From Balanoglossus misakiensis (lineage: Eukaryota; Animalia; Hemichordata), in NCBI GenBank assembly GCA_040954595.2, contig CM082588.2:5210156-5274155 (forward strand): a stretch of DNA of 64,000 nt. The letters are read 5' to 3'. Positions 8,110-60,561 of this stretch are shown here, piece after piece. The translations under genes and the position numbers were made by a program. The stretch's first letter is position 1, and each line of letters begins with the position of its first letter. The notes beneath the pieces were generated by a model that worked only from the letters and a program-made list of their open reading frames with translations, was not told the origin of the DNA and ran no database searches.

Positions 8110-8197
8110 GTGAGTACACAGCCTTTCTCAGAGCGATCACAATCTAAGGAGAGTGTTGAACCATAGCCAGGAATCTGGACATCGTTGGGCCAAAACC

Positions 8198-10707: not shown

Positions 10708-10752
10708 GATGAAAGAAACCAAATCTTGAAGATTAATGCATGGACAGAGCAG
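10708..10752 (+). CDS. CHRNA9/10-like: Gene A exon 3 (DERNQILKINAWTEQ, loop D)
   Basis: ttcag| ... |gtaaag, 45-nt exon typical of nAChR genes. Confidence 0.93.
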
Positions 10753-10912
10753 GTAAAGTTGTATATAAAGTGTTGATCCCATGTCGCTGTATACTTCTTG
10801 TTATTTTGTACAGAGTGACAGTGAACACTGCACTAAACCCTGTCCATATTTCTCTCAATGGATTGGAAAATTGATTAATACTTAATATCCGCTATACTAT
10901 TTACACCATCAG

Positions 10913-11022
10913 GAATGGTTGGATGAGATCTTGGTGTGGGACCCGGACATGTACGAGGGCCTGTCGGAAATCCGAATTCCCTCTTCTGAGTTGTGGCTGC
11001 CAGATATCACATTGTATAATAA
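10913..11022 (+). CDS. CHRNA9/10-like: Gene A exon 4 ([11 protein letters not shown]...[10 protein letters not shown], loop A)
   Basis: catcag| ... |gtaagt, 110 nt, WxPD motif, ends in phase 2. Confidence 0.94.
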
Positions 11023-11407
11023 GTAAGTTTCACTTTACCATCTCTAAGGCACGTGAAATTTAATGACGATGACATATGAAAGTAAAACGAAGCAAAAGGT
11101 TACGGGATGTCGTTCCCTTCACATGTTTATAACGGTCGCCATCTTGAGTGTGTCTTATGTTTCTGATATAGCCAAATGTAAGCGGGAGGGGGCGCTGTGT
11201 ATTAATTTTGAAAGATTCCTCCGCGCAGGCAAACAGTTCACCACATGGGCGGACTATTTGATATCCGGAAGGGGTGGGAGCTGGAACATTTACGAGAATA
11301 AATTGTCAGTCAGCTGTTAAACATGGGAGAGAAATACTGAAAAGACAGCCAACAGTTAGAGTTATTATATTTTCTAGTAACGGTGCATGATTCTATTTTC
11401 TTCGTAG

Positions 11408-11958
11408 TGCTGACACTCACGACTACATGGCAGAAAACAACACGGGGTCAAACGCGGTCGTCGGGTCAGACGGTCACGTGCGTCTCAAATCCAAACCGAC
11501 CCTCCTGAAGAGCACGTGTAAGATCTACGTCAAGTTCTTTCCCTTCGACGTGCAGGCGTGCAAGATGAAGTTCGGCTCGTGGACGTACAACAGCTTCCAG
11601 ATAAACCTCATGAACTCCAGCACCAGGCCGGACCTGCACGAGTACGTCAAGAACGAGCAGTGGGCGCTGGTGCACGCGGAGACCGAGCGGCACGTACTCT
11701 CCTACACGTGCTGCCCCGAGAAATACATCGACGTGACGTTCTCCGTGTGTCTGCGCCGCAAACCCATGTACTACATCTACAACCTGATCATCCCGTGTGT
11801 TCTGCTCTGCGCCTTGGCCTTGACTGGGTTTTTCATGCCGTACAGCGTAGGCGTCGTCAAGGCGTCCATCAGTGTCACCTTGATCTTGTCCCTGACGGTC
11901 TTTCTTCTTCTTGTGGCAGAAATGATGCCGAGGACATCGGAAGATATTCCTCTCATAG
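11408..11958 (+). CDS. CHRNA9/10-like: Gene A exon 5 (loop E, Cys-loop, loops B/F/C, M1, M2)
   Basis: ttcgtag| ... IPLIG|gtacga, 551 nt, lies within ORF 11427..12002, GC-rich codons. Confidence 0.96.
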
Positions 11959-12701
11959 GTACGACATTTTGTTATGTCCAATATCTGTCAGATGGTACAT
12001 AAATTACACTATCGCAACTTGCTGTTCCGGTCGTTTAAAGTTTGTGTTTACCCCAGGCTGGTATATCTGTCATAGGTGTGCTCCCCTACAAATACTCTTT
12101 AAACAGCTAGCATTTGTTATATTTTAGTCAATTTTTGTCAGCGACTGTCACAGTTGCCATTCGTCTTGAGTTTTCATCCAAGCCGTTAAATGCTTCTCTG
12201 TGCATTTCAAATCGATGACACATCTCCTCTCAAACTTCTGCTATCTAGCACGCCCTCTCCTGGTCGGAGTAGAGGGACAATATTATACTTGTCACAGTAT
12301 GACGTCAACGTTGGAGAGTATATTGTATTGGTTTTACAACTCGTAAAATAATTTTATCGTCTATCACCACGATGACAATGAAAATAAAGTCGTTTATCAA
12401 ATTGCTTTAATTCTCAATCCAGTCGTTCAGCGCTGAGAAATCGAACTGTAGATTATAAACTTATCTGAGGTAACATTATCGCTCCCTCGTGACGTTGCCT
12501 GTAACATTTACCTCCAATCTGCGGGAAAAACCTGCAGAGCTGTAGTTAGTGTTCAAAACACGTTCAGCAATTGAGTTCCAATTTCACAACCTTCAGACAT
12601 ACATGTAGGGCTTTTATATTTATTTTATATCTTGCATCTAATATCAAATTTCTAGCTGAATACATTGGTGACATGTTTTGTTTTTTTGGTATTATTTTCA
12701 G

Positions 12702-13297
12702 GGCAATACTACCTGGCCACAATGTGTTTGATTTCCTTGTCGACCGCCATGAACGTGGCGGTGTTGAATGTGCACGGCTGCCGACGCGAAGTGCCCGGGT
12801 GGATTCGCGTCATCGTCATGAGGTACCTGGCATTTGTGGTCTGCATGGGGAAGTGCACGTCGAAGGGCGCCGGGGCGCTGGACAGGGAGGTGCCCGGCAG
12901 AGACGGGCCCATCGTCAACAACCTGAAACACTCGCCCATCCCGCAGCTGCGCGACAACTGCGTCAAGACCGTGGGCGGCCGTCATCACACCATGTCGCTG
13001 CACAGCATGCGCGAGTACTACCACCACGACGACAGCGGCGACGACGGCGAGTGCAAGTTCGGCAAAATCGAACACTACGTGGACCTCATTTTCAAACACC
13101 TCAAGACTGTGCAGCGCAAAAACGACAGGAAGCTGGTGATTCGGGAACAGTGGTGCTGTGTGGCCGCCATCCTCGACAAGGCGCTCATGTACCTTTTCTT
13201 CATGTCAACTTTGGTGACGTCATTAGTGTTACTGCTCCAGGATCCCGGAGAGTCATTTCAAGTGTGCAAAGACAAAATCAGCAGAGGGTTAGAATAG
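12702..13297 (+). CDS. CHRNA9/10-like: Gene A exon 6 (M3, cytoplasmic loop, MA helix, M4, stop)
   Basis: ttttcag|GG CAA TAC TAC, EQWCCVAAILDK MA/M4 motif, TAG at 13295-13297. Confidence 0.95.
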
Positions 13298-15599: not shown

Positions 15600-16225
15600 T
15601 CACGATTTGTCCAAATCGTTGTCAATGATATCGTAACACAGTGTCTGTGTGTCTACTCCGGGGGTTTGCAGAAGAAGAGACAGGGTGGTTGACACCGTTG
15701 CTATGGTGAACAAGATGAGTAGAACCTTGTCCAATATGGTGGCCACCTTCACCCATTCCTCCCTCAGGGCAGATTTCCTCTCGTTCTTCCTCTGCACCTC
15801 CTTCAGGTGTCTAAATATCTGCTCCACGTAGTTCCCCATCTTCCCGAACTGACGCTCACCGAGAACACCGTCGTCGATATGGTGAAAATGCCGCGGGGAG
15901 CTCGACGCTTGACTCCCTGTACGCGCGCGGCCGCTCGTTGAGTAGTTCGTCTCCTTCTCGAACCCCGACAGCATGAGACGCCGACCGACGGCGGGCGACG
16001 GGCGGAGTCTGATGATACCCGAGGACTCGTCGCGCGGGATCCTCCTGGGTTTCTTGGGTTCGATGGCGCAGCTACAGTTCATGAAGCAAACAACCGCGAG
16101 GTACTTCAACACCACCACTTTGACCCATCTAGGAACTTGCCTATTGCATACATTAACATTTAAAACGGCGATATTCATTGCAGTGGATACGGAGATAAGA
16201 CACATGGCCGCCAAATAGTACTGAC
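15600..16225 (-). CDS. CHRNA9/10-like: Gene B exon 6b (M3-M4 of distal module, stop)
   Basis: tctctag|GT CAG TAC TAT, EEWVKVATILDK, open to TGA at 15600. Confidence 0.94.
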
Positions 16226-16345: not shown

Positions 16346-16896
16346 CTATCAAGGGTATTTCCATGGAGGTTCTGGGCATCATTTGGGCAACTAAGAGAAG
16401 AAACACAGTCAGGGACAGAATGAGAGTCACACTGAGGTTGGCTTTGACGACTCCAACGTTGTACGGCATGAAGAAACCGAGGAACGACAGAGCGCAGAGA
16501 AGAATGCAGGGAGTGATCAGGTTGTAGATGTAGTAGAGGGGCTTCCTCCGTATGCAAATATAAAACGTCACATCCGGGTACAGCTCCGGGCAGCAGTCGT
16601 ACTTGACTACGTGCTCGCGCGTGAGGGCCACCTGCAGGTCCCACTGTTCGTTCTTCATGAACGTGGCCACGCCGGGTCCCTCGGCTTGACTGGTCAGGTT
16701 CAGTTGGAGGCTGTGGTACGTCCAGGAGCCGAACTTCATCTTGCACGCCTGCACGTCGAAGGGGAAGTACTTGACGAACACCAGGCATGTGCTCTTCAAA
16801 ATGGTCGGCCTGGAGATGTACATTATGTTACCAGTGTTGTAGACGACACAGTTCGATGCCGAACTGTTTCCCTTGGAGTAGTCACCAGCGGCTGCA
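16346..16896 (-). CDS. CHRNA9/10-like: Gene B exon 5b (Cys-loop CLVFVKYFPFDVQAC, WTYH, YDCCPELY, M1-M2)
   Basis: tttaacag| acceptor, IPLIG|gtaggt donor, 551 nt, starts in phase 2 matching exon 4. Confidence 0.94.
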
Positions 16897-17463
16897 CTGT
16901 TAAATGGTAAGAAGTAAAAGTGATATTATTTAAATATATTGTGTATCATAAGGTTTCCTTTCAATAGGTAAGCAGAGAAATCATGCCGAAAATGTGTAGG
17001 CCAATTCCATGACCCACTGAGTCACGGTGACCTTACATCCTGGTATGTTGTCGGTATGACATCATACCTCAGTCGGGGATACATACAACGATCACCCTTT
17101 TGTAACAGAAAATCCCCACGTTGTGCTCTAGAGTGAGTTACCAATAATATAGTTGACTGTTTCGGAGTTTAAATCCAAGTGGAGAAATATCACTTAGATA
17201 CGACACTTACCATATGCACCATTTTCCCAAGTCTAACGCCCTCGCGCAACCATCATGAATTTGAACTCAAAGCGGGGCCAATGGAGAAACATTCTTGCTA
17301 TGATTGGTCAACTTCTACCGATTGACCTCGCATTGAGTCCAAATTCACGACGGCTGTGCATGTGTCAGGGCGCTAGACGTATTGTTTCTTTCGAAACAAT
17401 TGAAGCAAAATTCTTACAATATTGACGCAAGACTGGCAGCCGTGCAGAGTGGCAACGACACTG

Positions 17464-17721: not shown

Positions 17722-18338
17722 TCAGGGTATATTGTAAAGTTCTAGCAATTCTGTGTAATTGCCATAAAATGATTCATCGTTTTCAATTCTCCTGTCACAT
17801 AACTTTGTAGTGTCCCCTGGATTCTGCAGTAAGAGAGCCATGGACGTGACGACGGTTGCTAAGATAAACAAAACCATCAAGGTCTTGTCCAAGACGGTGG
17901 CCACTTTCATCCACTCGTTCCTCAGGGCCGCGTTGCGATCGGCCTTCCCTTGTACCATCTTGAGGTGAGTGAATATTTCCGCGACGCTACTCTCGACTTT
18001 GGAGAACCGCGGATCCAGTTCCTCGTTCAGGTTCTCGTGGCAGCTGTGGAACGCGGAATGTCGGACGCCGGAATTGTGGCTGTCCCGGAGACTGTTTCTC
18101 TCGTAGGAGTTGTCATAGGAACGGGCTCTTCTGAAACCGGTGGCGACTGACGAGGGCTGCGCAGAAGTGTTCTTTCTGCAGTGGTTTTCAGCCATGCAGA
18201 CCGCTGCCGCCAAATACTTCATCACGGCCACTTTGATCCACGGTGGAACTTCTCTCCTGCACACGTTGACGTTCAGTACGGCGATGTTCATGGCCGTAGA
18301 TACAGATATCAGCGACATAGCTGCCAAATAGTATTGTC
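17722..18338 (-). CDS. CHRNA9/10-like: Gene B exon 6a (M3-M4 of proximal module, stop)
   Basis: ccactag|GA CAA TAC TAT, NEWMKVATVLDK, TGA at 17722. Confidence 0.94.
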
Positions 18339-18789: not shown

Positions 18790-19340
18790 CTATAAGCGGA
18801 ATCTCCTTGGAGGTTCTGGGCATCATCTCGGCCACCAAGAGAAGAAAGACGGTCAGGGAGAGAATCAGAGTGACGCTCAGTGAAGCCTTCACCACCCCAA
18901 CGTTGTACGGCATGAAGAACCCCAGGAACGACAACGCACACAGCAGCACACACGGGATGATCAGGTTGTAGATGTAATACAGGGGCTTTCGCCTGATGCA
19001 TACGTAGAAGGTGATATCCGGGTACCTTTCTGGGCAGCATGGGTAGAATATGATGTGAAGGCGCGCCTTGGCGAACTCCAAATCCCACTGCTCGTTCCGA
19101 ATGAAGTACTGTAAGTCAGGCGTGGTTCTGACCTGGACCATTTTGACCTGGAAGCTGTCGTAGGCCCAGGAGCCGAACTTCATTTTGCACATCTGGACGT
19201 CGAAGGGGAAGTATTTCACGTACACTTGGCACGTGCTCTTCAGTATTGTAGGCTTGGACTTGTAGAAGACGCCGCCTGTCGAATTCACCACACAGTTTGC
19301 TGCCGACTCGCTTTCCTTAGTATAGTCGATGGTATCCGCG
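18790..19340 (-). CDS. CHRNA9/10-like: Gene B exon 5a (Cys-loop CQVYVKYFPFDVQMC, WAYD, YPCCPERY, M1-M2)
   Basis: ttctcattcag| acceptor, IPLIG|gtaatt donor, 551 nt. Confidence 0.95.
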
Positions 19341-20740
19341 CTGAATGAGAAGGAAACAATGACACCTGAGTCGTTGCTGCAAGTTTCATTCAGTTGACGT
19401 TCGGACGGTCAATGAGAGCAGGCGTGTGAATGTTCTCAATGGCACTAACACATCTAGATGGCACAAGTTGTGTTTGGCAAGACGCGTTTCGTTGCTTTGC
19501 TTATGTTAGACGGATAGCGTCCAATTGTAGACCCAAGTCGACCAACAATTCAAATACCGAGCCACTAAGGATGTTAACCGATTTCTAACTTGATAATAAC
19601 AGGGACAGTGAGTGAGTACTATGCCGAGATTAATCTCTATGCTGCAGCATTGTATAAATGTGACGTATTTCAAAATCATCATGCATATTCAATAATACTT
19701 GCGAGTATGTCATGGCCGGGCATCTGCAGATGACATGCTTTGGAAAAGAATGAATTGGCCAAACGACACACAATATGTGAAAACAAAAGAAACACACAAA
19801 CAAGACGCACACCGTTCTAGAAACAACATACAAGTATCCCCCCCCCCCCCCGCTAATCTTCAACTGGATCATGTTCGTTAATGTATGACATGTCAGAGAC
19901 ATAGCGAAAAAGACACCTTTCCGTTTTTGCTGATTGGTAAAATATTTTTAGATATGGGAACCCTTTCATATTAACATATTTTGCTGGGAATATAATGCGA
20001 AATTTGAACTGGGGTTAATGCAATCTACATCAATCTATCAAGAAACACCTATGTATTGAATTTAAACCTTACCTATTTGAGTACCGAACTGATGAGTAAA
20101 CGCGTCGTTGGGGTTAAAATTAGACAAAAAATGTCCCGGTTGTTTTCGGTGAGTGTGCTTGGTTTGTGCTCGAAAAACAAAACTGTATTTGTTAGTATAC
20201 ACGGGGCCTTCTATACGTGTTTCCAGTGAGAACCAGGGTGTGTTTGTTAAACTCTTCGTGTGTGCACCCAGAAAACAGGAAAAACTAAATTGCTGGCGCA
20301 TCAATGAATGTTCATGCTATGACCATGCTGTGTGTTGATGATGGTTCTCGATAAACGAGAGGGTACAGCTCTTGGACATGCTGAAAAGCCATATTTAATC
20401 TTCAAGTTGACACATGCAAGCCTTGTACCCTCATACAAGACCTTGGCTGTATGCAAATCATGCCAATATCGAGTTAAATAAACCAAATATAAAACGGGAT
20501 ATTCATACTCGAGCAATGCAGAAATGAAGCTTTTTTAACATGTAAACCAGACCTAGATATTTTACGCCAACTCATCACTGTAACCTCCAAAGATGCAGTC
20601 GTTAGTTTTGCCATGACTGTTTATAATTAATCGAGAAAGTTTTGCTGACCAACGGAATGTTCTCGTAAAAAAGTAAACGCGCATGTTTATTGTCATACAT
20701 CGATTTGATTTTCAAATCGCATGAAAACATCAATAGGTCC

Positions 20741-20872: not shown

Positions 20873-20982
20873 TTGTTATACAGTGTGATATCTGGCATCC
20901 ACAAATCAGACGAGGGAATTCGAATCTGGTCGATTCCGTCATATTCATCCGGATTCCACCTCATCATTTCATCCATCCACGT
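20873..20982 (-). CDS. CHRNA9/10-like: Gene B exon 4 (TWMDEMMRWNP...LWMPDITLYN)
   Basis: gtttcag| ... |gtaagg, 110 nt. Confidence 0.94.
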
Positions 20983-21311: not shown

Positions 21312-21356
21312 CTCAGTCGTCCATATATTAGTTTTCAGGACCTGGTTTCGTTCGTC
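21312..21356 (-). CDS. CHRNA9/10-like: Gene B exon 3 (DERNQVLKTNIWTTE)
   Basis: ctttcag| ... |gtaaac, 45 nt. Confidence 0.93.
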
Positions 21357-23435
21357 CTGAAAGTAAAAGAACAGAATCGTTACAGGTTATATACTAAACT
21401 GTATACACATTGAATTTGTGTGTGCTAATTTACTGTGATATGGATCAAATCATACCTACCCATACACCCAGTCACCATGACATATTTAATATGCAGAGAC
21501 GAATATCATATTATAAGTTATTTGTTTTTGTAAGTGAATAGATGGGTGTGTTTAAACACACAGTCATAAATAACCGATGTATATTCATGTATTTTTATTT
21601 AATCTCTAACTTGGGATTTCATGTTCCCAAGGAGCGGAGTTTTAACTGATGTTTATTGGTCATTTGATCATAGTTGTATAACTCACGTAAACGAATACAT
21701 GTAGCTGGAATTATGAGAGCCTTGTGTATTTGACCAGGCAACATATTCATGCGAAAACTGAGATTGCGAGTCTCGGCTTCCCTGGAATTCCATAGTTTAA
21801 ACATCACCGGAGCTCAAAATTGAAAAGTGACCACTTCGCTTTTATACCGATCGTCCTACTATAAGCAGCGACATTTTAGTTCCGTTTGTTTCATGAATAG
21901 CAATATCAAATATTATAATATGTAAGAATTTAAATTGTTAACATTAATGCGCATGGAATTTGCCTTCCTAAAACATCGTCATCGTTCTATGCTTCGCTGA
22001 GGAAAGTGTTCCAAGTAAGACTCATTGCACCTTGAAATCAGTAAATTGATGTTTGATCAACCAACAATCAAAACCACATCCAAACTCATTTTTTTCGCAT
22101 GTTTTATTTAACTCAACGTATTGCACACTATAACCAAACGATACGCCAGACATTCTATTAAGCCGGACATTGATTTTATTCTAAGTGATTTCACAAAATA
22201 ATAAACCAGGGGAAGCGATAATAATATGAATACGACATCTGAGTAGCACATGGCAGATAGTTCGGTATCTAATACCACGCCTGAAGGAACAGATTGAATA
22301 CACTTGTCATCGCCCATGCGATTTGCAATCTCTCTTCACCTCAGACTAAAATGAAGTTATCTGGTTTCTAAAGGAATGACGCGCTTGGAAATGTGAGTGT
22401 GGCGCCCTGTATTATCTAGACAAGAAGTGTATAGTTGTCACCAACAGAGGTGGTGTGTCTTATCTCCAGTCGTGGTTATTGTTCAACTGAGTGGATTTTT
22501 TGAAGAAAAATGCGTTCAGTTGCTGAAAGTATAGATCGTATCAGGACCACTTATCAAAGAACGTATTCTGAATAAGAGGGAACCTTGATGACATAATTTG
22601 TATTCGAGTCTTGAGAATTGGTGCGGCGCTTGTAAATTTGTCACAGTCATATTTGGTGTTTTTACTGTTTCCGCCCGTAAAAATGTCCATAATATGGCAC
22701 ACCCTAAAATCTTGAAACATTATATTGCATTCAGGAGACACGTCATATGTGTTTGGAAACCATAATTCGTCTCCCAGAGAACCATTATGATCGCGAATAA
22801 TTCCCCTTCGTGATAACGTTCCACTCGATACAAACCCTCATTTCTACTGGACAAAGTTTCTTGTGGTTTACCAATCATCTTTTTTTCTATGTGATGAACC
22901 GACACAAGTGGTACTTTGCCAACATAGAATAGAACAAAAATTAATGCCCTGCACTTTTCAGGTGCGATTAGACATTTGCCATTGTCAACATGCTATATGT
23001 ATTATGTATGATATACGTCTTAATTTCAACAGCTGATATGAAATTAAACTCATGTTTTTTTTCAAATCGCTAAAAAGCTTCCTAGAGTTTAACGATACAC
23101 ATTTACTGGTTTGCCTAAATTCATTTATTATTTATTCTCTTTATGATTTTTCCTCGCATTAAGTTTTGTACTAAACCTATTTTAAGGTATAAATAGCCTA
23201 AGATTGGTGATAATGGTCTGTCTAATTGAAGTTTCTACATACACTCGTTTACGACAGTAGCTTTCGATGGCTTTCCCTAATCGATATTGCCTGTCGATGT
23301 TTGCATGCAATATATCCAGCGAAACGTGAAACTAAAGTGCCCTTAAATGGCCTGTCACGTATGCAAATGTAGTAAATTACAATTTAGCGCAACAGCATCA
23401 GTGACTGAACCATGAAAAGGTTGATTTGGACTTAC

Positions 23436-23572
23436 CATATCAGCAATCTGGTTCAGGGCCATGTCAAAGGTCACCCAGATCGGATTGGAGAAATTCTTGA
23501 CTGGACGCACTTTCTTGTTGTAGTTCTTGAACAGATCATCGAAAAGTTTCTGTTCGCTACCAATAGCAGAAA
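23436..23572 (-). CDS. CHRNA9/10-like: Gene B exon 2 (SAIGSEQKLFDDLFKNYNKKVRPV...QIADM)
   Basis: tttacag| ... |gtaagt, 137 nt. Confidence 0.93.
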
Positions 23573-27891: not shown

Positions 27892-27964
27892 CTGGGTTCA
27901 TGGAAAGTATTTGTAACGTCACGAAAATTGAGATCCACGTGGCTTGCCTCAGTAGGATAAAACA

Positions 27965-28001
<37 letters not shown>

Positions 28002-28072
28002 GAGTATTTTAGCTCTGTTGCACGTCTCTGGCCATAGACAGCCTGCGGTCGAAATCTCCACCACCGACCCAT
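27892..28072 (-). CDS. CHRNA9/10-like: Gene B exon 1 (long leader/signal peptide MGRWWRFRPQ...TWISIFVTLQILSMNP-G)
   Basis: Ends CCAG|gtaatg in phase 1, matching exon 2. Clear homology to 60016-60169 (WRFRPQ, TWISIFVTLQILS). The exact start ATG is inferred from the paralogue. Confidence 0.82.
27965..28000 (-). repeat. (ACA)12 coding microsatellite = poly-Thr in gene B leader
   Basis: 12 in-frame ACA codons inside exon 1. Confidence 0.9.
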
Positions 28073-28409: not shown

Positions 28410-28442
28410 GCTATTAATACCGTGATTTGCAATGTTGACGTC
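28410..28442 (-). promoter_or_regulatory. Putative core promoter of gene B (CRE-like GACGTCAA + TATTAATA TATA-like box)
   Basis: 30/33 identical to 60529-60561 at an equivalent distance upstream of the gene C ATG. Confidence 0.65.
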
Positions 28443-32763: not shown

Positions 32764-33386
32764 TCAAGACAGATTTCTCTCCAACTCATTGTTTATGATA
32801 TCGTCGCACAATGTCTGCGTGTTGCCGCTGGGCTTCTGGAGAAGCAGCGAGAGCGTGGTGGTGATGGTGGCGATGCTGAAGAGCACCAGGAGGAGCTTGT
32901 CCAAGATGGTGGCCACCTTCACCCACTCCTCCCGCAGCGCCGCCTTCTTGTCGCTCTTGCGCTGCACCATCTTCAGGTGCTTGAAGATCTGCTCCACGTA
33001 GCGCTCCATCTTGCCGAAGCGGGCGTCGAACTGCGGAGGCCTCTCGCGGTAGCCCCGCAGCGACTTCACCAGTCGCTCTGACGGCGCGGCGTCGTCGTCG
33101 AAGTTGTTCGTCTCCTGCTCGCACACCGACGCCGTGAATCGTCGTCCCACCATGGGAGACGGTTGGAGCCTGATGATCCCCGAAGACTCGCTGCGTGGGA
33201 CCTTCTTGGGTTTTGTCGGTTCGATGGCGCAGCTGCAGTTCATGAAGCAAATCACCGCCAGGTACTTCAACACCAAAACTTGGACCCACCGGGGAACTTC
33301 TCTATTGCATACATTAACATTTAAAACAGCGATGTTCATTGCAGTGGATACAGATATAAGACTCATGGCCGCTAAATAGTACTGAC
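32764..33386 (-). CDS. CHRNA9/10-like: Gene C exon 6b (M3-M4 of distal module, stop)
   Basis: ctttccag|GT CAG TAC TAT, EEWVKVATILDK, TGA at 32764. Confidence 0.94.
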
Positions 33387-33654
33387 CTGGAAAGAAAGAA
33401 GAACGGTATATGCATTAAATTCCCATGAACTCTCCTCATGACGTCAATTCAGTTGACAAAAATAAGCAAATATTTCAAATATGTTCAAATAGCTTTGATG
33501 CAAGTTTTGAGAACATTCCAGAGTATCGCTTAATAACTGGGAGATGACAAACAAACTGTCTTTGTTCGTCTTTGTTTTTTTTTGTGATTTTTCTGAAAAG
33601 TTGCCCGCATTTACAAATGTAAGCTATTGAAAGAACCCCTCTAAAATGTCTCAC

Positions 33655-34205
33655 CTATCAAAGGTATTTCCATGGAGGTTCTGGGCATCATTTGGGCAAC
33701 TAAGAGGAGAAACACAGTCAGGGACAGAATGAGCGTCACACTGAGGTTGGCTTTGACGACTCCAACGTTGTACGGCATGAAGAAACCGAGGAACGACAGA
33801 GCGCAGAGAAGAATGCAGGGAGTGATCAGGTTGTAGATGTAGTAGAGGGGCTTCCTCCGTATGCAGATGTAGAACGTCACATCCGGGTACTTCTCCGGGC
33901 AGCAGTCGTACTTGAGCACGTGCTGGCGGGTGAGGGCGAGCTCCAGGTTCCACTGCTCGTTCTTCATGAAGTTGGTCAAGCTCGGCTGCACGGACACCCT
34001 GGTCAAGTTCAACTGCGTGCTGTGGTACGTCCAGGAGCCGAACTTCATCTTGCACGCCTGCACGTCGAAGGGGAAGTACTTGACGTTCACCAGGCACGTG
34101 CTCTTCAAAATGGTCGGTTTGGACACGTACATAATCTCGCCGTTATTGCTGACGACACAGTTGGAGGCGGAACCGTTTCCTTTAGAGTAGTCACCTGTAT
34201 CAGCG
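33655..34205 (-). CDS. CHRNA9/10-like: Gene C exon 5b (CLVNVKYFPFDVQAC, WTYH, YDCCPEKY, M1-M2)
   Basis: attgtag| acceptor, IPLIG|gtgaga donor, 551 nt. Confidence 0.95.
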
Positions 34206-34582
34206 CTACAATATGAATCAAAAATGGAAGCGAAATTACAGTGATGAAAACCAATCCAATAAGCAGTACATTTATTATCACGATGCCCAGTCAAAACAAA
34301 ATGATCAAATTTTAACGTTGTACAGGCAAATATTGACCATAGGCTGAAAACTGAGTTCAAAGCATTGTCCAGATCGTTTCTCTCCCCGATTTTCATTTTC
34401 TAACGTTGCGTGATTTTTGTGTTTCATTTCCACGTAAATGTTGAAAGCTTCAGGTCTATTGGCCCCTGAAGAACAAGATTGGATCTATGTAACTTCTCAT
34501 CCCATTGACTCGATTCACACGGAGACAAAACAATAACAATGGAAACACACAAACACATAGCCATAATATAATTCATCACCCG

Positions 34583-34588
34583 TTTATT
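34583..34588 (-). terminator. Candidate proximal poly(A) signal for gene C module a
   Basis: AATAAA on the - strand, in the same position relative to a conserved block as 17464-17469 in gene B. Other candidates exist at 36139-36149. Confidence 0.35.
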
Positions 34589-35333
34589 GCATTTAGTACA
34601 ACCATTTCAAAATGACAGACACACAGTTGTATTTGAAATCTAAACACATCGTGCTAAAACTAGCAAAAACAATGAGTGAATCAACTTTCACATTTCATAT
34701 TTTTCTATGAAAAATAACCGTCACTGAAATTAATGCCAATATTTCATTAAACTTACACGTGCACTTAAAACACAGTGAATTTTTCCTACAAAGTAGACCA
34801 CACAGTATTTCGATTTTATCGTCAGAATTTCGCTGGCCGATTTTATGACCTCGTAAATGTGAAACGATTTCAGATACTTCACATAGTTGTTCCCCATAGC
34901 ACGTTTATGAAGTAGAATTCAAAATCACGCCCTTGATATTACATGCTGATGATATATATTGAACCATTTTGACATGACAAGCCAGCTTTGAAGTACGTCG
35001 ACGTCTGGTTTTGTCTTTATGTATTTCCACATACAGTCACACCAGTTACTTCGAAGTTTGAAGCACGTGTTGAATGTTTGCCATTTAAGGACTTAATCTG
35101 TAGCGATGGTCGATAAATGTATGATATAGCTCAAATTCTTTCGTAATATAAGATAAATGGTGCATGTTATTAACAACGTTTTGTTTTGACACACACAGAA
35201 AACCAAAATGGCGTGAGGTTGCCTTGATGACCAATGTTTCTTCTGCGACTCGGATTTGCCGTGTGATTCGCGAAAGCCAGTGCATCAAGTTTGGTATTCC
35301 TTCAAGGTATGTTCAGTCACGCAATCCACAAGA

Positions 35334-35410
35334 AAACAAACAAACAAACAAACAAACAAACAAACAAACAAACAAACAAACAAACAAACAGACGGACGGA
35401 CGGACGGACA
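35334..35410. repeat. Compound microsatellite (AAAC)n(GGAC)n
   Basis: Directly visible; lies between modules a and b of gene C. Confidence 0.93.
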
Positions 35411-36511
35411 TACAGATAAATATAAAACTAACTAACTAACCAGCTAACTCATATTTTGGAATCTAAAAAAAACATGCTGACCAACACAAATATATTTAAA
35501 TATTTTAACGGTAATGTAGTATGCCCAGGGTTATATTTGTGGCGTGTTACATGCAGTTAGTTTTTTTTCTTATATAATTATTATAAGCAAGTGGGAAAGA
35601 AATAATCTTCGTGTTTGCAGCTATTTATTAAAATATACACGAGTCTATCATTCGTTGAGTAGAAACAAAATATAACGTATTGTTACGGAAGAGCGATTGA
35701 CATTCGAGTTTTGTTGAAAGTCTGTACTCCAAGTCTGAAATAAGCAAAGGTCAGAGAATGTCGATTTTTTGTTTGTTAAAAATAATTGATAGTGGATGGT
35801 TTTCAATTCCGCGGTAATTATTGCTTATGGGTTTTTATTTGTGAAAGCAGATCCAAATCACAGCCTTCCCTATAGTAAGAATTGCGCAAAGATAAGATGC
35901 GCATCCTGTGCGATTTACGCAGCCGCAGATTCCGCGAAATATTTTCAGTCCGTCCCTCTTTTTCGTATAACCTCTTGGAACACATCTTGTGGTTCCGTAG
36001 AACTATAGATGATGTGTTGAGTGTCCAGGAGGCGGGCCTTCATAGGACATGTATAGCATTTAATACTATCCCATCTATTATTTTCGTAATGTCATCTCAA
36101 AGTGGGCGTTATTCGAAAATATACACGCAGACAAGGGTTTTATTTTATTCATTAATACCAAAATCCGATTTACATTACGTCCTTACAATAATTACTCTAA
36201 CCAATAAGAACTGTCAAGGTATTTTTTCTTTCCCCATTCATAAAAGCGCACGTGATGTCGGGCACTTCAAGTTTGAACACCCCGTCGTTAGCCAGGCCAT
36301 TCATTGAATTAAAGTTAGCTGTTATTTCCCAAGGCGGTTTAGAAAAGTTTTGACAGTAGCATCAAAACTGGTTGCAAGTGTAAAATTCTGGGTGTGTGCT
36401 TTAAGTCTTCGCTAGGTCTCTCTCGGTACGTTCTGCATATTTGATATTAGGGGGTGATGTAAGTTTGATATAAGTGTACGGTTTTCTTGGCGTTGTACTT
36501 AAACAAGATGT

Positions 36512-37119
36512 TCACATCAGTTCTGTGTGTTCGCCATAAAAACTTTCGTCTATGATAACCCTGGAGTCACACAGCTTTTTAGCGTCCCCGGGGTTCTGTA
36601 GTAAGAGCGCCATGGAGGTTATGATAGTTGCCATGATGAACAGAAACATCAACGTCTTGTCCAAGATGGTGGCCACTTTCACCCACTCGTCCCTGAGGGC
36701 GGCCTTCCTGTCGTACTTTCTCTGGACGGTCTTCAGGTGCTTGAAGATTTCCGACACGCTGCTCTCCACTTTGGAAAACTGCGAGTCCACTTCATCGTTC
36801 ACGTTGTCGCCGTAGCCGTGGTAGGACGACTGTCTGCCCGACGAGCGGAGGCTGTAGCGGGTGTCCCGCAGACCGTGGCTCTCGTAGGGGGCGTCGTTCG
36901 TGCGGGCTCGCCGGTAACCGATGATGTCAGAAGATGGCGGCATGGATTTCCCGCGCCTGCAGTTGCTGCCTTTCATGCACATCGCCGCCGCCAAATATTT
37001 CATCACAATCATTTTGATCCACGGCGGGACCTCTCTCTTGCAGACGTTGACGTTGAGTACAGCTACGTTCATGGCCGTTGACACAGATATGAGAGACATC
37101 GCTGCCAAATAGTACTGGC
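36512..37119 (-). CDS. CHRNA9/10-like: Gene C exon 6a (M3-M4 of proximal module, stop)
   Basis: cctgtag|GC CAG TAC TAT, DEWVKVATILDK, TGA at 36512. Confidence 0.94.
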
Positions 37120-37409
37120 CTACAGGAACATAAACAACATTTGAAAATCTGTGAGATTTACGTCCCCATTCTGTGGCAAGAACTGGTTTATGTCAGGTAT
37201 ACCCCCATGCTACTAACAACAGGTGAGCACACCATATACCCTAGGTCTTTCCTTGTAATCACTCATGACCGAAAACATGTTGTTCTGGTACAGTATTGTT
37301 GACATTATGCACGCCTGCATCCGGGCATTTCTGGTGTATAACAACACGTACTGCATAATCTAACAGCGAACGACAAAGTAATTCAACCAAATGTCAATGA
37401 CCTCCTTAC

Positions 37410-37960
37410 CTATAAGCGGAATCTCCTTGGAGGTTCTGGGCATCATCTCGGCCACCAAGAGAAGAAAGACAGTCAGGGAGAGAATCAGGGTGACGCTGAG
37501 TGACGCCTTCACCACGCCAACGTTGTACGGCATGAAGAACCCCAGGAACGACAACGCACACAGCAGCACACACGGGATGATCAGGTTGTAGATGTAATAC
37601 AGGGGCTTTCGCCTGATGCATACATAGAAGGTGATATCCGGGTACTTTTCTGGGCAGCACTCGTAGAAAGTGATGTGGCGGCGTGCCTTGGCCGACTCCA
37701 GATCCCACTGCTCGTTGCGGATGAAGTATTGTAGGTCGGGCGTGGCCCTAACCTGGATCATGTTCACCTGGAGACTGTCGTAAGCCCAGGAGCCGAACTT
37801 CATTTTGCACATCTGGACATCGAAGGGGAAGTATTTCACGTACACTTGGCACGTGCTCTTCAGTATTGTAGGCTTGGACTTGTAGAAGACGCCGCCCGTC
37901 GAATTCACCACGCAGTTTGCTGCCGACTCGTTTTCTTTGGCGTAGTCGACTGTATCTGCG
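37410..37960 (-). CDS. CHRNA9/10-like: Gene C exon 5a (CQVYVKYFPFDVQMC, WAYD, YECCPEKY, M1-M2)
   Basis: ccctacag| acceptor, IPLIG|gtaagg donor, 551 nt. Confidence 0.95.
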
Positions 37961-40900
37961 CTGTAGGGGAGTAAATAGACAACAATTAAACGTATTGCTA
38001 TTGCGTGTTTGACGTTTCCAGAAAACGAGGCAAAGTACATCTAATATAATAATACAGGAATACACGAGGATAAGGAAGTTATTGGAGTTTTTGAATGACT
38101 GAATGGTTAGCATTTTGAAGTTGGCTTACGAAGGACACAATTCGAGGGCGATTTTCTCTCTCTATCTCTAACCAGAACAGAGGAAATGTACATGTATCTA
38201 ATTCTCAGTATGAGTGTTCTCATCTTAATTTGTTCGATATTTAGTCGGATGACAAATAAAGGCGCGCAGCTTGACTCGAGATTGTGCGAAGCATGCATCC
38301 ATTTTACAGCAAAGTAAAAGTGCTTGCAGGGTGGAGGAAAAAACTTAAAGAAAGTGAATGCTTTCCAGAGAAATGACATACGGCCAACATGGCGTGTCCA
38401 AGTCTTCGAATCACCATCTGGTGGCGCAATTTTCTCGCGAGTGTCATCCACTGAAAATCTTCAATTTTCCATGGAAATATTGGTTAAATTTACATAGGTG
38501 AACGTGTACATCTATGACGTGAATACAACAGTTGTTTACCCAGGGGTGTATGGGGTCTCGTGCCATAAGGTCAAATGGCCACCGTCGTGTACTAAAGATT
38601 CCCAGGGGCCTGTGGTAGATTTATCTACAGTCGTTCAGGGAGACCATATTTCGATGACTGAAAATCGTTCAAACATCATTGTAGTTTCACACGTCTCCAT
38701 AAAATGAACGATGGCTGTTTGCCATGGTATTGTACATAGAAATATCAATATGGACCGGTTATTGACTTTCATTTTTATGTATACACGTAGATTGTTCACA
38801 AAGTTGTTATTGGCCCTTTCCATCTGCATGTAGATGTAAATACTTTATTTTTAGTGTTAGTGACGTCATAGACCACGTCGATTTTATTACGACGGTGAAT
38901 ATATTTTGTCAGATTCAAACGTAATGTATTTTGTGACCGACTGTGATTAAATTTTTTTCTACGTGTGTGCTATGCCGTGCGATCGCACCCAGCAATGATA
39001 AACGATACACCATTTGAAAAATCATGTTCTTAAAAACGGAGAATGTTGCAGTTCGTGGAAGCAGCACGGATGAAGGGAAATTCAAAATGGTGCTTGCTTG
39101 GAATAATCACGCTTGCGCAGTCAGGTTTTTGCTATGCTGTGTGCAGAAAATGGCGCGTGTGATTCGTGATTATTGAAGGGAATTACACATGTATGTGGGA
39201 CTGAGGTGAAAATATAGAGGCATTTACGAGTGTAAGCTGTGATGAAGCTGAACATCAACATGCGTGGTCGACAGGAAAAGAGCTCAAAGCATGCACAATT
39301 GAGGTTAGCTTTTATAAAAAAACGAGATTGTAATCGGAAAGACTAGGCACTGATAAAAAACACCAGCTGTTATCAAAATGCAATTATGGAGAGGAACGGT
39401 GAAATAAAGAGGGGTTAAAATTACATATTGAATTTATCCCTTACCTATTTCAGTGCCGAGAGGATGAAAATACGTCTTTTGGGAAATTAGAGAAAAAAAT
39501 CTCGACGTTTTCATTATTAGTTGCTAAGTCTTTTGCGTGGCATACACAACGATGTATAGTGGTTAGTATTCGCTGAGATTTTGAAATTAAAAATAAAACG
39601 CCAACAAATCCGTGATTTACGGAAAATACGCTTATCTGACCACTTGAGCATTGTGGAGATTAGGAAAAGGGGATTAAAAGAAGTAAGAGAGAGGTTAACC
39701 ATCCATGCAGCTGTCCTGGCTATATTACAGGGGGAGATTGCGTGACTTGTCGGGGTGAAGTTTTCATGATCAAAGCTAATACATGCAAATGGCGAAGTAA
39801 ATGGGTGATGGAGAAAAATGGAAGATTGCTAGAGAGCTGACGTCATCCTGTTTAGAGAAACCGTGGCATAATGACGAAATGAACGCAACGTAAAACAGCG
39901 CATACTCCAGTGCGAGTGATAGAAAAAAAAGTCATCCGTGACCTTTTACACAAATCAGATACAATCCTATGTCTCCGTGGTACTGGAAAAATACTTTTTA
40001 ATCAAAACGTACAATGTTATGTCATTACTGCGTGTATTGTAGCTGCAGATTGAATCAGTGCGATAACATTGTACAGACAGATGAGTGATAAAGATAAAAT
40101 CTTCCTCTACTATATGTGCTTTTTTTTCTGGATGTAGAGATAACACATTCCTGTATTGTATGTTTTACTGACTCTTTTTCATACCGACTGATCCAAAAAT
40201 AGAGCATATTAGATTTTCTACAAAATTCGCAATTAAAAGCATGTGGACAATCTTTTATGTACATCTTATATAGGCTTATTTCATTTTAGTTTTTTAATGT
40301 TGCTAGCTATCTCTGAAATACAGTGTATTGTGACTCAACAATAATAATAATAATTACATTTCCAAGTTAGTTATATATAAATATATAAATATAATTGTGA
40401 CAACTTACAAGACAAAATACAACTATGTACAAAGGGATATAACATGTTGATATTGTATTTGGCATATGGTGTGGTGACATTGTTATTTTCATGTGTGTTT
40501 CTTTCAGGTGCTTTGGCGCATTGAGGCTGATTGAAAATCACATTGACAAATCCGACTTCATTCCATGTCAACATGTACGGAAATGAACCAAGGACTTTTG
40601 TAAATCCATCCAATTTCACACACCACCAGAATCCGTAAGTTGTCAGCGTTGATAATTTTTCCTCGGTTCTCTGGTCATTTGTTCGACATTCTCCATAGTT
40701 ACAAGATCGAATGTCATTTTCCGCGGCACAGGTATACACTCTACCGAGACATAGACTGATCATTGTGCCTTCTTTCATCCATTTTCAGGTTAAAATGTTA
40801 ATGAGGTTCAAGTGTTGGATTTTCAAATTTGCCATACTTTTATGAAGACTAGAAAAACCAACGGAAAGCTAAGGTAGGCACAGTTTGAAACACTCACGCA

Positions 40901-41278
40901 CAACATACCAACAATTACTCAAATCTTGAACTCCGCGCGGTCGCTTCGACCTTTTAAAACCAACAAACCGTCATCTTTGTCGACAAAATCGCCGACGAAC
41001 CGGGGAAGTTGTGACTTATTCATGAGCATCTGCGGTTTCGATCAGAGATTCTATAAGTGCAGTCTGTCATTCTGGTAATGACACCACTTTGAGGTTACCC
41101 TTATATCAAGGGTCAAAGGTCGCACTTCTTGGGATAGACTGAAAGGTTTCTGCACGTGGTGTGACAGACAGTTGCTACCACGGGGAAACACACAGGGCAA
41201 GATGTGTGGATTTTTCCCCGGATGAGAAAAATGGCGGCGGGGAAACGCATTGAGACAAAACTCGTGAATATGACTTAC

Positions 41279-41388
41279 TTGTTGTATAGGGTGATATCTG
41301 GCATCCATAAATCAGACGATGGAATTCGGATCTGGTCTATGCCGTCGTATTCCAGTGGGTTCCATCGCATCATCTCGTCTATCCACGT
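41279..41388 (-). CDS. CHRNA9/10-like: Gene C exon 4 (TWIDEMMRWNP...LWMPDITLYN)
   Basis: actccag| ... |gtaagt, 110 nt. Confidence 0.94.
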
Positions 41389-41685: not shown

Positions 41686-41730
41686 CTCTGTTGTCCAAAT
41701 ATTCGTTTTAAGTACCTGGTTTCGCTCATC
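41686..41730 (-). CDS. CHRNA9/10-like: Gene C exon 3 (DERNQVLKTNIWTTE)
   Basis: attttag| ... |gtacgt, 45 nt, peptide identical to gene B exon 3. Confidence 0.93.
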
Positions 41731-43880
41731 CTAAAATACAAAATAAAACACAGATCCATATTAGTATTTATTTAATAATGAAAATCAGTCTAATTAGTTG
41801 GCGTGTTAACTTCCTCACACACTAAAGGAAGAAAATTTACATAACGAATCCTCTGGGACTAATAGTGGCGATGTAACGCCTGGAGCATATACACATTTAA
41901 TGTGCAGTTAACAATCCTGGCCAACTCTTTTAACCCGTCAACACTGACGGTGACATGTATTAATTGCGTTTGTGCTTGGAGTGAACCCGTTTTTTTTTTA
42001 ATGTTAATAAACAACAAGGATGCTGTTTCTGGTGAAGATGTTTGTGGCATGGGCGATCCTGAAAGAACATTCTAGGAATATTTACATCGCTCCTTCCACT
42101 AAACACAATCTCATCTGACATCAGAATATTGGAATGGGATCGTTTATTGATAACATTGTGCAACGTGAGAGCCATGTGACACACAGACGACCTTTAGGGA
42201 TGCATCAAAAGCAACAGACGTCCAAAAGAGCCTTGAAGGTCAAATAACTATGATGAATAGAACGAACTGTTTTTTCCTGTGTGTGACCAACATATTCGAT
42301 AAACTTCAGACTTTTGTAATCTTTACGATGAACGATGATTTCTGTACGCGTCATAGCTATCGTGACGTTCTGTGCTTGCTATATACCTACGTTATATGTA
42401 AACTTTATAACGGGTCCAGCAAACAGCTTCAACGTGACAGCATTGACAGTGTAACATTTGGCGGCGAGTTCCTTATCTAATATCACGCTTCGAGGCACAC
42501 ATTAAACGCACTTGTCATTTCTCATTCGCTCCCCGTATTTGAGTGAACAACGACGCGAAAACAGAAATAATCCAGTCCAATTGAATTCGTATTGCTAGGG
42601 AATTTCCGCGCCAAGGGCTTTGAAGTACATCGCAACGTTAGATTTAAAATAGACAAAGGCACGACCAGCCCCTCGCAATGGTGTTTTCATTAGACAAGTG
42701 ATTTCCCGAATGAGTTTCGCAATAACACTCAAAAGACCGGGTGCTTTAATATCAACTGTGTGAGATGATTGCCTTTTAGTAGAACGGACAGACCCCAACT
42801 TCACTGTAATGTTGAATTCAGGCTCGTAAATTAGCAGAGATGTACATTATAGACAGATGTTAGCGAGTGCTGTTGATTAATCTTTCTGTTCTGATAAAGC
42901 TCAAGCGAGAAAGACTCGCAAACTCTAGCAGGTTACACAATCAAAAAAATCGACCATACTTGCAGTTTTCACATTAACAAAAACTCGACTTACAAAATGC
43001 GACAGCCATATTACACATATTCACAGATTTGAAGAAAATACAGTCAGTCATATTTATGCGCGCGCACCAATGCAGTACAGCATCATACACTGCAACGCTA
43101 AGCTGACTGTTGGTCTTCTGTGCTTTCTTCATTGTTGTTGTTAAGATAGAGGTATATTATTCGATCCACGCACATTATATTTATTTCCCTTGCGCTGAGA
43201 TAACCGAGTTGTTTCCTATATCACATACTTTATGCTAAACCCCAAAGTACAGGTTGGATAATGGTTGGAGATTTTTCTTAATCACCACAACAACGGCGCA
43301 TCTACGAGCCTGACCCGCTTTCCTGGAAACCGTTCATGAATTATTCAGTCTGCTAACGTTGATTACCTATTAACGAAATCCACGGCGAGACGATTTGAGG
43401 ACATATAGAATCGACTGCAGTGTTAACGGGTTGTTTAATGACATCATTCACGTGCCTCTCCGTGTTTACGTCAATGCGTCATGCGATGGCACTGGCCTAA
43501 TCGATCAGAAACGTCGCGGCGTGCAGGAATTATTGCCGGAAATAACGAGAAACAAAAAATGTCATTAAAATCCCATTCCGGCAGACCACGTCTTGGCCAA
43601 GACCCTCGAAGACTCGTTAAAGACCACCTGCCTCTGTCTTGCCTGCGATCTTTGTTCTTTTGATCTTTGTTCTTTGCTGGCGACTAAACTGCATTGCCGA
43701 TTTGCATATACAAATCAAGTCGCATTCGACAGTATACTGGAAACTGCATAGAAGGAGAATTGCATTATGACGATCTTGCAAATTTCGTTTTGAGATCATA
43801 TACTTATTTTGGCGTGTCATACTTCATCCCCCCCCCCCCTCCATATAGCTAAAGGGTGTTAAGACTTTATTTCTGCTTAC

Positions 43881-44017
43881 CATGTCGGCAATCTGATTCA
43901 GGGCCATGTCAAAGGTCACCCAGATGGGACTGGAGAAATTCTTGACCGGGCGCACTTTCCTGTTGTAGTATCTGAAGAGGTCATTGAAGAGCTTCTGTTC
44001 GCTTCCAATGGCAGTGA
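43881..44017 (-). CDS. CHRNA9/10-like: Gene C exon 2 (TAIGSEQKLFNDLFRYYNRKVRPV...QIADM)
   Basis: tctttcag| ... |gtaagc, 137 nt. Confidence 0.93.
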
Positions 44018-60015: not shown

Positions 60016-60169
60016 CTGTAGTGGATGAAAGAATTTGTAACGTCACAAAGATTGAAATCCACGTGGTCGGCCGCAGAAGGAACAGCCAAGCGGTTGCAGT
60101 TTGTCTCATATCTGGTGCAAATCTTGACGAATAGACGGTCTGGGGTCGGAATCGCCAGCGCCGAGTCAT
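60016..60169 (-). CDS. CHRNA9/10-like: Gene C exon 1 (leader/signal peptide MTRRWRFRPQ...TWISIFVTLQILSSTT-G)
   Basis: Ends ACAG|gtaatt in phase 1. Homologous to gene B exon 1. Confidence 0.82.
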
Positions 60170-60528: not shown

Positions 60529-60561
60529 GCTATTAATACCGCGATTTCCAATTTTGACGTC
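60529..60561 (-). promoter_or_regulatory. Putative core promoter of gene C (CRE-like + CCAAT/ATTGG + TATTAATA)
   Basis: 30/33 identical to 28410-28442, 360 nt upstream of the ATG. Confidence 0.65.

Follow-up and report, generated by a model that had tools for sequence, protein, structure and literature searches.

Two nicotinic alpha-subunit genes of Balanoglossus misakiensis carry two complete C-terminal modules behind one set of N-terminal exons

Results

Genes at the locus

The Balanoglossus misakiensis DNA analysed here, a stretch of 64 kb (64,000 nt; hereafter the window), holds three related genes, A, B and C. Searches by tblastn and self-blastn found exons 2, 3 and 4 in three copies each, and exons 5 and 6 in five copies each. 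Genes B and C lie on the minus strand, and in both of them single exons 1-4 are followed by two complete exon 5+6 modules (a and b). The initial annotation had given this order for gene C (exon 4, 5a+6a, 5b+6b); the mapped exons bear it out, the two junctions it proposed (41279 to 37960 and 41279 to 34205) are exact, and the motifs it listed are all present in the modules named.

60016-60169, minus strand: gene C exon 1, coding part from the ATG, hydrophobic leader; 71% identity to the N-terminus of P. flava P0001; phase-1 GT donor
43881-44017, minus strand: gene C exon 2, 137 nt, shared
41686-41730, minus strand: gene C exon 3, 45 nt, shared, aligned to alpha7; we take its Trp to be that of loop D
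41279-41388, minus strand: gene C exon 4, 110 nt, the last shared exon, ending at the loop A Tyr
37410-37960, minus strand: gene C exon 5a, with loop E, Cys-loop, loops B, F and C, M1 and M2; S2', E20'
36512-37119, minus strand: gene C exon 6a, with M3, intracellular loop, M4 and stop
33655-34205, minus strand: gene C exon 5b, same span as 5a; N2', Q20'
32764-33386, minus strand: gene C exon 6b, M3-M4 and stop
27892-28072, minus strand: gene B exon 1, coding part
23436-23572, minus strand: gene B exon 2
21312-21356, minus strand: gene B exon 3
20873-20982, minus strand: gene B exon 4
18790-19340, minus strand: gene B exon 5a
17722-18338, minus strand: gene B exon 6a, with stop
16346-16896, minus strand: gene B exon 5b
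15600-16225, minus strand: gene B exon 6b, with stop
7973-13297, plus strand: gene A, a single-module paralogue, with exons 2 (7973-8109), 3 (10708-10752) and 4 (10913-11022)
11408-11958 and 12702-13297, plus strand: gene A exons 5 and 6, sister to a+b in the module tree

All splice sites of B and C are canonical (AG/GT at the exon boundaries), exon 5 measures 551 nt in each of its five copies, and all five spliced reading frames are open. The C-terminal blocks are in tandem on the same strand, and every block has an acceptor in phase and a stop of its own. Joining the exons in the order 4-5a-5b-6b puts them out of frame, and 4-5a-6b is in frame. The spacers between a and b (825 nt in B and 2306 nt in C) had no homology to exons 1-4 (best E 0.4), and the window contains no N. 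The window yielded neither exon 1 of gene A nor the Cys-rich N-terminal exon that relatives have as an alternative. A(A/T)TAAA signals follow all four modules of B and C, and are uninformative because they are too common in this DNA.

Receptor class and pore

Both PF02931 and PF02932 scored above the cut-off in exons 5a and 5b, as did PF02932 in 6a and 6b. The ligand-binding domain, the Cys-loop (C-x13-C) and the four-TM domain of a nicotinic alpha subunit are present, and the Y-x-CC...Y motif, loop B W, loop A Y and loop D W, aligning to alpha7, occur in all five modules, with the vicinal cysteines of loop C and the aromatic box in place. The five modules belong to a hemichordate and echinoderm "alpha9/10-like" group, which we recognized by the M1-M2 linker P-Y-x-V-G-V-V-K in 61 fetched proteins; this label comes from database names. 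The best PDB matches are alpha7, and our trees were built without vertebrate alpha9/10.

Five sites in exon 5 are fixed between all six a and all six b sequences. They include M2 positions 2' and 20', numbered in the alpha7 register, which are S/E in a and N/Q in b across 12/12 sequences. The M1-M2 linker is one residue longer than that of alpha7; Val stands at -1' and V13' is kept. Glu at -1' is the rule for canonical cation-selective nicotinic receptors (excerpts of PMC4055736 and PMC2233820), and it is absent here. The Pro-Ala at -2'/-1' of the anion-type Lymnaea and Schistosoma ACC channels is absent as well, Val-Val being found instead. Pore selectivity cannot be read from this sequence.

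Purifying selection on the modules

Across the exons compared, dN/dS was 0.11-0.26. The initial annotation held that both b modules had been kept by selection and proposed dN/dS as the check; the values were 0.26 for exon 5b and 0.24 for exon 6b, with pN significantly below pS in both (p=3e-7 and p=2e-13).

Relatives and their annotation

A search of relatives for the same layout, which the initial annotation had also called for, found pairs of a and b modules in three acorn-worm families, with one each in Saccoglossus and Glandiceps and both genes in Ptychodera, the layout being inferred from shared contigs and neighbouring accession numbers. An independent P. flava assembly contains a one-to-one counterpart of each of the five modules. 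Among the linker-group proteins examined, the a/b split was seen in enteropneusts only; the isoforms of the echinoderm members and of the other hemichordate paralogue examined differ at the N-terminus only (6/6 pairs).

The P. flava orthologue of gene C is represented in RefSeq by XP_070568558-61, isoforms X1-X4, in which one N-terminal half is followed by either C-terminal half: b in X1 and X3, and a in X2 and X4. The N-terminal halves are identical through exon 4, with common prefixes of 152 and 166 aa and exon 4 ending at residues 148 and 162. Isoforms in RefSeq are modelled from RNA alignments. This set is the direct support for one N-terminal half being joined to either C-terminal half. 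Three of the four b modules of relatives are annotated as separate headless proteins, namely P. flava XP_070567180 (the b module of the B orthologue), Glandiceps XP_077977657 and Saccoglossus XP_006818018.

Exon 6a searched against all libraries at E<1e-30 returned known hemichordate matches only (2/117). No short database protein crossing the exon 4-5b junction was found in 58 matches, and the one close b-type match in that search (P0153) is a 112-aa piece starting inside exon 5.

Module relationships and gene conversion

Amino-acid identity in exon 5 was 93% within type a and 86% within type b, against 71-75% between types; in exon 6 it was 68% (a) and 70% (b), against 50-52%. The module tree grouped an a clade (99/98) and a b clade (99/96), joined as a+b (99/97), which was sister to A (100/98). 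Grouping by type, ((Ba,Ca),(Bb,Cb)) plus A, had been predicted beforehand. It was unchanged with exon 6 alone, for which AU tests rejected Ba+Bb (p 4.7e-6) and Ca+Cb (p 1.6e-71). Within each type, the Saccoglossus and Glandiceps sequences branch outside the B/C pairs; the forks on which B/C orthology depends are only partly supported (97/94, 89/76, 93/87 and 84/64).

The likeness of B and C in exon 5 is uneven at silent positions. Codons for the same amino acid differ between B and C at 34/78 in exons 2-4, where dS is 1.5, and at 53/126 and 52/133 in exon 6, but at only 5/68 (a) and 4/67 (b) in the M1-M2 stretch (p about 1e-7 to 5e-7), a stretch in which a and b differ from each other at 32/62. 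Exon 5 also contains runs of 107 nt and 131 nt that are identical between B and C. In exon 6, pS is 0.50-0.53 and there is no conversion-like signal. At the protein level, species-type versus gene-type sites in module a were 4 vs 1 in exon 5 and 2 vs 12 in exon 6 (p 0.017), and module b gave no such support (1 vs 2 and 3 vs 7; p 1.0). Judging from these patterns, exon 5 has probably been homogenised between B and C by gene conversion, which would hold the Cys-loop and M1-M2 uniform within each type and leave loops F/C and exon 6 to drift. The initial annotation had described the within-type match as far closer than that of a versus b; the identities uphold this, but the closeness in exon 5 is probably due in part to gene conversion, and not to descent only, which inflates the match between paralogues.

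Together with the single a and single b in two other acorn-worm families, the tree and the AU tests on exon 6, which shows no conversion signal, support the order proposed in the initial annotation, with the modules duplicated before the whole gene. Based on Saccoglossus and Glandiceps having one a and one b each, and Ptychodera having both genes, we infer that module duplication took place in an early acorn worm and gene duplication later, probably in ptychoderids. Once gene A had split off, an early enteropneust would have gained a second copy of the 3' half, from intron 4 onwards to the gene's end; the whole two-module gene would have been duplicated after the Glandiceps lineage branched and before the split from Ptychodera flava.

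Conserved non-coding blocks

The introns of B and C had been called largely unalignable. Most of their length is, with the exception of shared blocks of 78 nt in intron 4 and 68 nt in intron 2; a further 33-nt block lies upstream of exon 1.

39426-39498, minus strand: intron 4 element of gene C, with CTAAT, a pyrimidine-rich stretch and TAG/GTAAGG (AG ends at 39445); 78% identity to B 20054-20131
20054-20131, minus strand: intron 4 element of gene B, with TAG/GTAAGG (AG ends at 20073)
60529-60561, minus strand: 33-nt block upstream of gene C exon 1, matching B 28410-28442 (91% identity, E 6e-6)

The intron 4 element occurs once per gene and is a candidate recursive splice site, poison-exon donor or internal first-exon donor; the upstream block is possibly a promoter or 5' UTR element. 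We do not claim a docking/selector pairing for the 20-30 nt past the intron 4 GT, as it is not conserved between B and C. In gene B this stretch pairs best just upstream of 5b (rank 1/49 blocks, -15.4 kcal/mol), whereas in gene C the pairing is equalled by 36% and 21% of 81 blocks, and the pyrimidine tract of 5a is the best site. Between intron 4 and the a-b spacer, exact antisense matches did not exceed those of shuffled sequence, with 6 and 10 of 50 shuffles equally good. The intron 4 element, the probable gene conversion and the nematode precedent (unc-49, avr-14) were not part of the initial annotation.

Discussion

Genes B and C are nicotinic alpha-subunit genes in which splicing, in our judgment, likely joins exon 4 to one or the other half, which would give two full-length subunits per gene; the three genes would encode at least five subunits. 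The choice would be one of alternative last exons: exon 4 would join 5a, with the transcript ending after 6a, or module a would be skipped and exon 4 joined to 5b. The conserved TAG/GTAAG of intron 4 may, speculatively, take part in it. The leader and loops D and A would be common to the two isoforms; loops E, B, F and C, the entire channel and the intracellular loop would be specific to each. Joint expression from a single promoter would, by analogy with UNC-49B/C, favor a/b heteromers.

An unlikely alternative is that module b mainly encodes a headless subunit, started internally at Met25 of exon 5b and acting as a modulator like dup-alpha7 (CHRFAM7A, listed in the PDB as CHRNA7 exons 5-10 plus FAM7A exons), with the intron 4 donor ending an internal first exon. 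The headless annotations in relatives are as this would have them, that strong donor is conserved in both genes, and a Met is found at codon 25 in 5/5 b modules with the stretch visible and in 0/6 a modules. However, 13 of the 20 differences between B and C in the 24 codons of 5b before that Met are at third positions, so that the stretch looks translated from an upstream exon. In addition, the 5b acceptor retains the phase and position of 5a, P. flava X1 and X3 are full length, and a headless form would be without a leader. It is less probable still, and in our view very unlikely, that the b modules are separate genes with N-terminal exons elsewhere or trans-splicing, or recently orphaned pseudogene halves. 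Three RefSeq annotations do give b its own gene model, but the spacers hold neither exon 1-4 homology nor an assembly gap, and the dN/dS of b and its intactness across three families also count against this.

The probable conversion in exon 5, with its long identical runs, could in principle have produced the a-a and b-b likeness after B and C had duplicated their 3' halves independently, or after the gene had duplicated first. We consider this highly improbable, as exon 6, without conversion signal, groups by type with by-gene clades rejected, and the Saccoglossus and Glandiceps modules fall outside the B/C pairs. The same identical runs might point to duplication in the assembly, through haplotigs or collapsed repeats, as the origin of B and C or of a and b. 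The dS of exons 2-4 and the mostly unalignable introns speak against this, and the one-to-one counterparts in P. flava refute it, leaving it next to no probability; these counterparts and the selection on b sustain the earlier argument against an assembly artefact or orphan fragment.

Nematodes offer a clear precedent for the architecture of exon 4 followed by alternative C-terminal halves, and one RefSeq annotation already contains it implicitly. In the literature consulted, one front half with two back halves was not found described for nicotinic receptors; nematode chloride channels have it. The unc-49 GABA receptor locus was reportedly described by Bamber et al. 1999. Two of its defining features, single N-terminal exons and tandem in-phase C-terminal blocks, are found in B and C. 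According to the excerpts of PMC8841521 and PMC6920096, the shared N-terminal exons of C. elegans unc-49 are spliced to three tandem 3' blocks, with splicing and co-assembly proven; as in B and C, the product is a Cys-loop receptor whose binding site is partly, and transmembrane segments wholly, isoform-specific. As far as those excerpts go, unc-49 differs in being a GABA-gated chloride channel with three blocks, whereas B and C are nicotinic alpha genes of a deuterostome with two blocks and proposed splicing, and their compound gene was itself duplicated whole. The layout of B and C arose independently of unc-49. Nematode avr-14/gbr-2 (GluCl-alpha3A/3B) likewise yields two isoforms, with the N-terminus in common and different C-termini that form the channel, and this is conserved between species; a title cited in the PMC8841521 excerpt gives identical ligand-binding domains, whereas the switched module of B and C includes four of the six binding loops.

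Among nicotinic genes, human CHRFAM7A has a duplicated unit given as "exons 5-10" of an alpha gene (title of PDB 9qto), fused to unrelated exons and without the N-terminal part. The b copy, in contrast, is in tandem behind native exons 1-4, old and under purifying selection. Judging from CHRNA7 exon sizes, the exons 5-10 unit presumably matches the intron 4 break of B and C. The mutually exclusive exons 3a/3b and 8a/8b/8c of insect nAChR alpha6 are, as in B and C, old tandem exon duplications for subunit diversity, but single internal ones that rejoin common downstream exons (excerpts of PMC1919356). In B and C the switch covers about three quarters of the protein, stop codon included, with no rejoining.

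In a fuller scenario, two pore types would have been kept behind one N-terminus in three families, in a receptor group with a filter outside both the cation and the anion rule; a conserved recursive splice site in intron 4 would run the switch; and conversion, following duplication of the whole gene, would have locked the pores across paralogues while the binding loops diverged. This seems doubtful to us, with at best a modest chance of being right as a whole.

These findings suggest that the three headless "alpha-9-like" hemichordate RefSeq genes are mis-split isoforms. They also carry a warning, as exon 5 identity between the paralogues misdates such duplications. B and C are a clean example in which part of a gene was duplicated first and the whole gene afterwards. 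If exon 4 is spliced as we propose, the unc-49 way of making several pentameric-channel subunits from one promoter would extend to nicotinic receptors and to deuterostomes. S2'/E20' versus N2'/Q20' would predict different conductance or Ca2+ permeability for a and b, and the pair is a natural experiment on these two M2 positions, within a receptor group whose unusual filter has neither Glu nor Pro-Ala.

Gene Architecture

Three genes for Cys-loop receptors lie in the window; A is on the plus strand, and the other two (B, C) are on the minus strand. A self-search of the window identified exons 5 and 6 five times each but exons 2, 3 and 4 only three times each, the surplus being tandem exon 5+6 pairs (modules a and b) in B and C. 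Exon 1 was located via homologues, in single copy, in two genes:

28072-27892, minus strand, exon 1 of B
60169-60016, minus strand, exon 1 of C

The same homologue-based search located no exon 1 of gene A in the window. Within exon 1 of B, an in-frame (ACA)n repeat (27965-28002) gives the leader a poly-Thr stretch.

AG/GT flanked every internal exon boundary of the three genes, exon 5 was 551 nt in all five copies, and exons 2-4 joined to each module gave five open frames of 478-488 residues, leader not counted. In both B and C, joining 4-5a-6b keeps the frame and joining 4-5a-5b-6b breaks it. The window has no N bases, and a search for homology to exons 1-4 found none in the spacers between modules a and b (825 nt for gene B and 2306 nt for gene C). 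The module motifs and junction coordinates of the initial annotation were correct on re-checking against the window sequence, and the two-module feature of B and C is real. The B spacer also holds a 39-nt inverted repeat (79%, 38-nt loop; 17244-17359), possibly a small transposon remnant or a hairpin.

Order of Duplications and Selection

Trees were built from 24 rows, comprising the five window modules and 19 hemichordate or nearest echinoderm matches; one echinoderm row dropped out of the exon 5 tree. Gene A was sister to the a and b clades (support 99/98 and 99/96, respectively). Within each of these, Saccoglossus branched first and Glandiceps second, outside the B and C copies of the window species and Ptychodera flava, which formed four-copy clades (100/99 and 100/98). 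These three relatives represent three separate families. Grouping by gene was rejected on exon 6 (topology tests with 16 rows) for Ba+Bb (p 4.7e-6), Ca+Cb (p 1.6e-71) and the four B rows (p 2.8e-10). The tree by module type and these rejections support the earlier proposal that the module duplicated first and the whole gene second. An exclusive grouping of window Ba with window Ca, without P. flava, was also rejected on exon 6 (p 0.014), and the gene duplication is therefore older than the split of the window species from P. flava. Glandiceps and Saccoglossus each had only one a and one b among the matches listed, as counted from annotations. Several exon 5 residues of the Saccoglossus a module (P0002) are b-like, e.g., those of the loop E stretch and the Met that follows the M2-M3 Ser-Thr; they either are ancestral or stem from a/b conversion on the Saccoglossus branch.

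Between B and C, Nei-Gojobori dN/dS was 0.11 (5a), 0.26 (5b), 0.24 (6a), 0.24 (6b) and 0.03 (exons 2-4), and pN was below pS in each of the four module exons (p at most 3e-7). The b-module values are not near 1, in agreement with the claim that these modules were kept by selection; the b modules show no decay.

Isoforms or Separate Genes

Four P. flava isoforms (XP_070568558-61) derive from one gene, the C orthologue, and combine two alternative N-termini with an a or a b C-half, with no difference through exon 4. They provide good indirect support that exon 4 of gene C may be joined to either module. In three of four cases (the P. flava B orthologue, Glandiceps and Saccoglossus), the b module is annotated as a separate protein lacking exons 1-4, which would be expected if b modules had a genuine internal start. 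However, across the first 24 codons of 5b, upstream of the first Met, 13 of 20 differences between B and C fall at third positions, as would be expected if these codons are translated from exon 4. The accessions of the Saccoglossus a and b proteins adjoin, and Glandiceps a, b and A lie on contigs of identical length, probably one contig. These headless models are likely mis-splits, although an internal start may exist.

Receptor Identity and Pore Differences

The closest matches (the best 120 of 224) were acorn-worm proteins named alpha9/10-like, a database name rather than a tree-based orthology to vertebrate alpha9/10. Identity to P. flava was 82-91% from exon 2 onward, which points to a different ptychoderid as the probable source of the window, and Pfam and PDB alignments confirmed an alpha-type nicotinic subunit. 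The shared exons encode the leader and loops D and A. Loops E, B, F and C lie in the module, together with the Cys-loop and M1-M4; loops and primed positions were assigned through an alignment to alpha7.

In many members of the receptor group, an alternative N-terminus places a small Cys-rich domain of ~35 aa before the ligand-binding domain (in the relatives, P0121, P0123, P0124, P0006, P0011, P0012 and P0023). A search of the window detected no copy of it. In P. flava, this domain occurs with both the a and the b C-half of gene C, and its Pfam match to the TNF-receptor domain PF12191 was weak and below cut-off (E 0.045 in P0124). Nicotinic subunits do not usually carry an additional domain at the N-terminus.

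Five exon 5 positions were fixed between six a and six b sequences (one was visible in only five b), and b departed from a at all five. Gene A has the a residue at three of them (2', 20' and one M1 site) and the b residue at the Cys-loop site. M2 contains two of the five: 2' is S in a and N in b, and 20' is E in a and Q in b. Changes at pore-ring residues should affect conductance or Ca2+ permeability, and such a change is predicted between a and b. In all window modules the M1-M2 linker has the alpha7 length plus one residue, with Val at -1'; Val-Val before Lys 0' and the longer linker characterize the whole receptor group (window 33655-34205 and 37410-37960; 61 further proteins). According to PMC4055736, Glu at -1' marks cation channels and Pro-Ala anion-selective nAChRs, and the group linker, as aligned, fits neither rule. 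According to PMC2233820, making alpha7 anionic required P-2', E-1'A and V13'T, and E-1'A by itself abolished Ca2+ permeability. V13' is retained in the window modules, which may thus be either cation- or anion-selective.

Probable Gene Conversion between B and C

At codons for the same amino acid, B and C differed synonymously at 34/78 in exons 2-4; for exon 6 the counts were 53/126 and 52/133. Exon 5 had only 2/32 and 1/30 (Cys-loop region) and only 5/68 and 4/67 (M1-M2), against 12/41 and 9/34 (loops F and C), with region limits picked post hoc after viewing a sliding window. The M1-M2 codons are free to change, since 32/62 of them differ between a and b. The longest identical B/C runs in exon 5 were 107 and 131 nt. 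Among informative protein sites, exon 5a had four species-type and one gene-type, and exon 6a two and twelve (p 0.017); no such contrast between exons 5 and 6 was found in the module b proteins. The low exon 5 divergence probably stems from conversion between modules of the same type, which the initial annotation overlooked. Selection on synonymous sites, or polishing errors between near-identical exons, may instead account for it.

Non-Coding Elements

Between B and C, intron 4 could be aligned over a single stretch of 78 nt (78% identical, present once in each gene). In both genes this stretch carries CTAAT, a run rich in pyrimidines and TAG|GTAAGG. On the window minus strand YAGGTRAG occurred five times (two true donors, the two intron 4 elements and one unexplained, at 29324), with ~0.002 expected in a 78-nt block (post hoc); intron 4 of gene A had no element of this type. 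The motif is a candidate recursive splice site, internal first-exon donor or poison cassette, the last of which, at 16 nt (B) or 31 nt (C), would have TAG in frame as a stop. Pairing of intron 4 with the 5b acceptor region was present in B only and was dropped.

Other blocks were also observed. The isolated CAG|GTGAG at 29324, which precedes exon 1 of B by ~1.2 kb, is possibly a 5' UTR exon donor. A 68-nt intron 2 block (75%; B 22243-22310, C 42451-42518) is a possible regulatory element, and a 33-nt block (91%; B 28410-28442, C 60529-60561) ~340-360 nt upstream of the ATG a possible promoter element.

Comparison with Known Systems

According to PMC8841521 and PMC6920096, unc-49 splices one N-terminus to three C-termini in tandem, which differ in their binding and transmembrane parts, and the two isoforms of avr-14 have alternative C-termini. 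The B/C locus resembles both in genomic layout. The exclusive exons of insect alpha6 are internal (PMC1919356), unlike such C-terminal alternatives. A literature search covering few subscription papers found no account of the hemichordate locus or of a nicotinic compound locus, which genome-paper supplements may mention. To the known compound layout, the B/C locus would add probable conversion, differences in the pore and a candidate splice switch, in part by inference.
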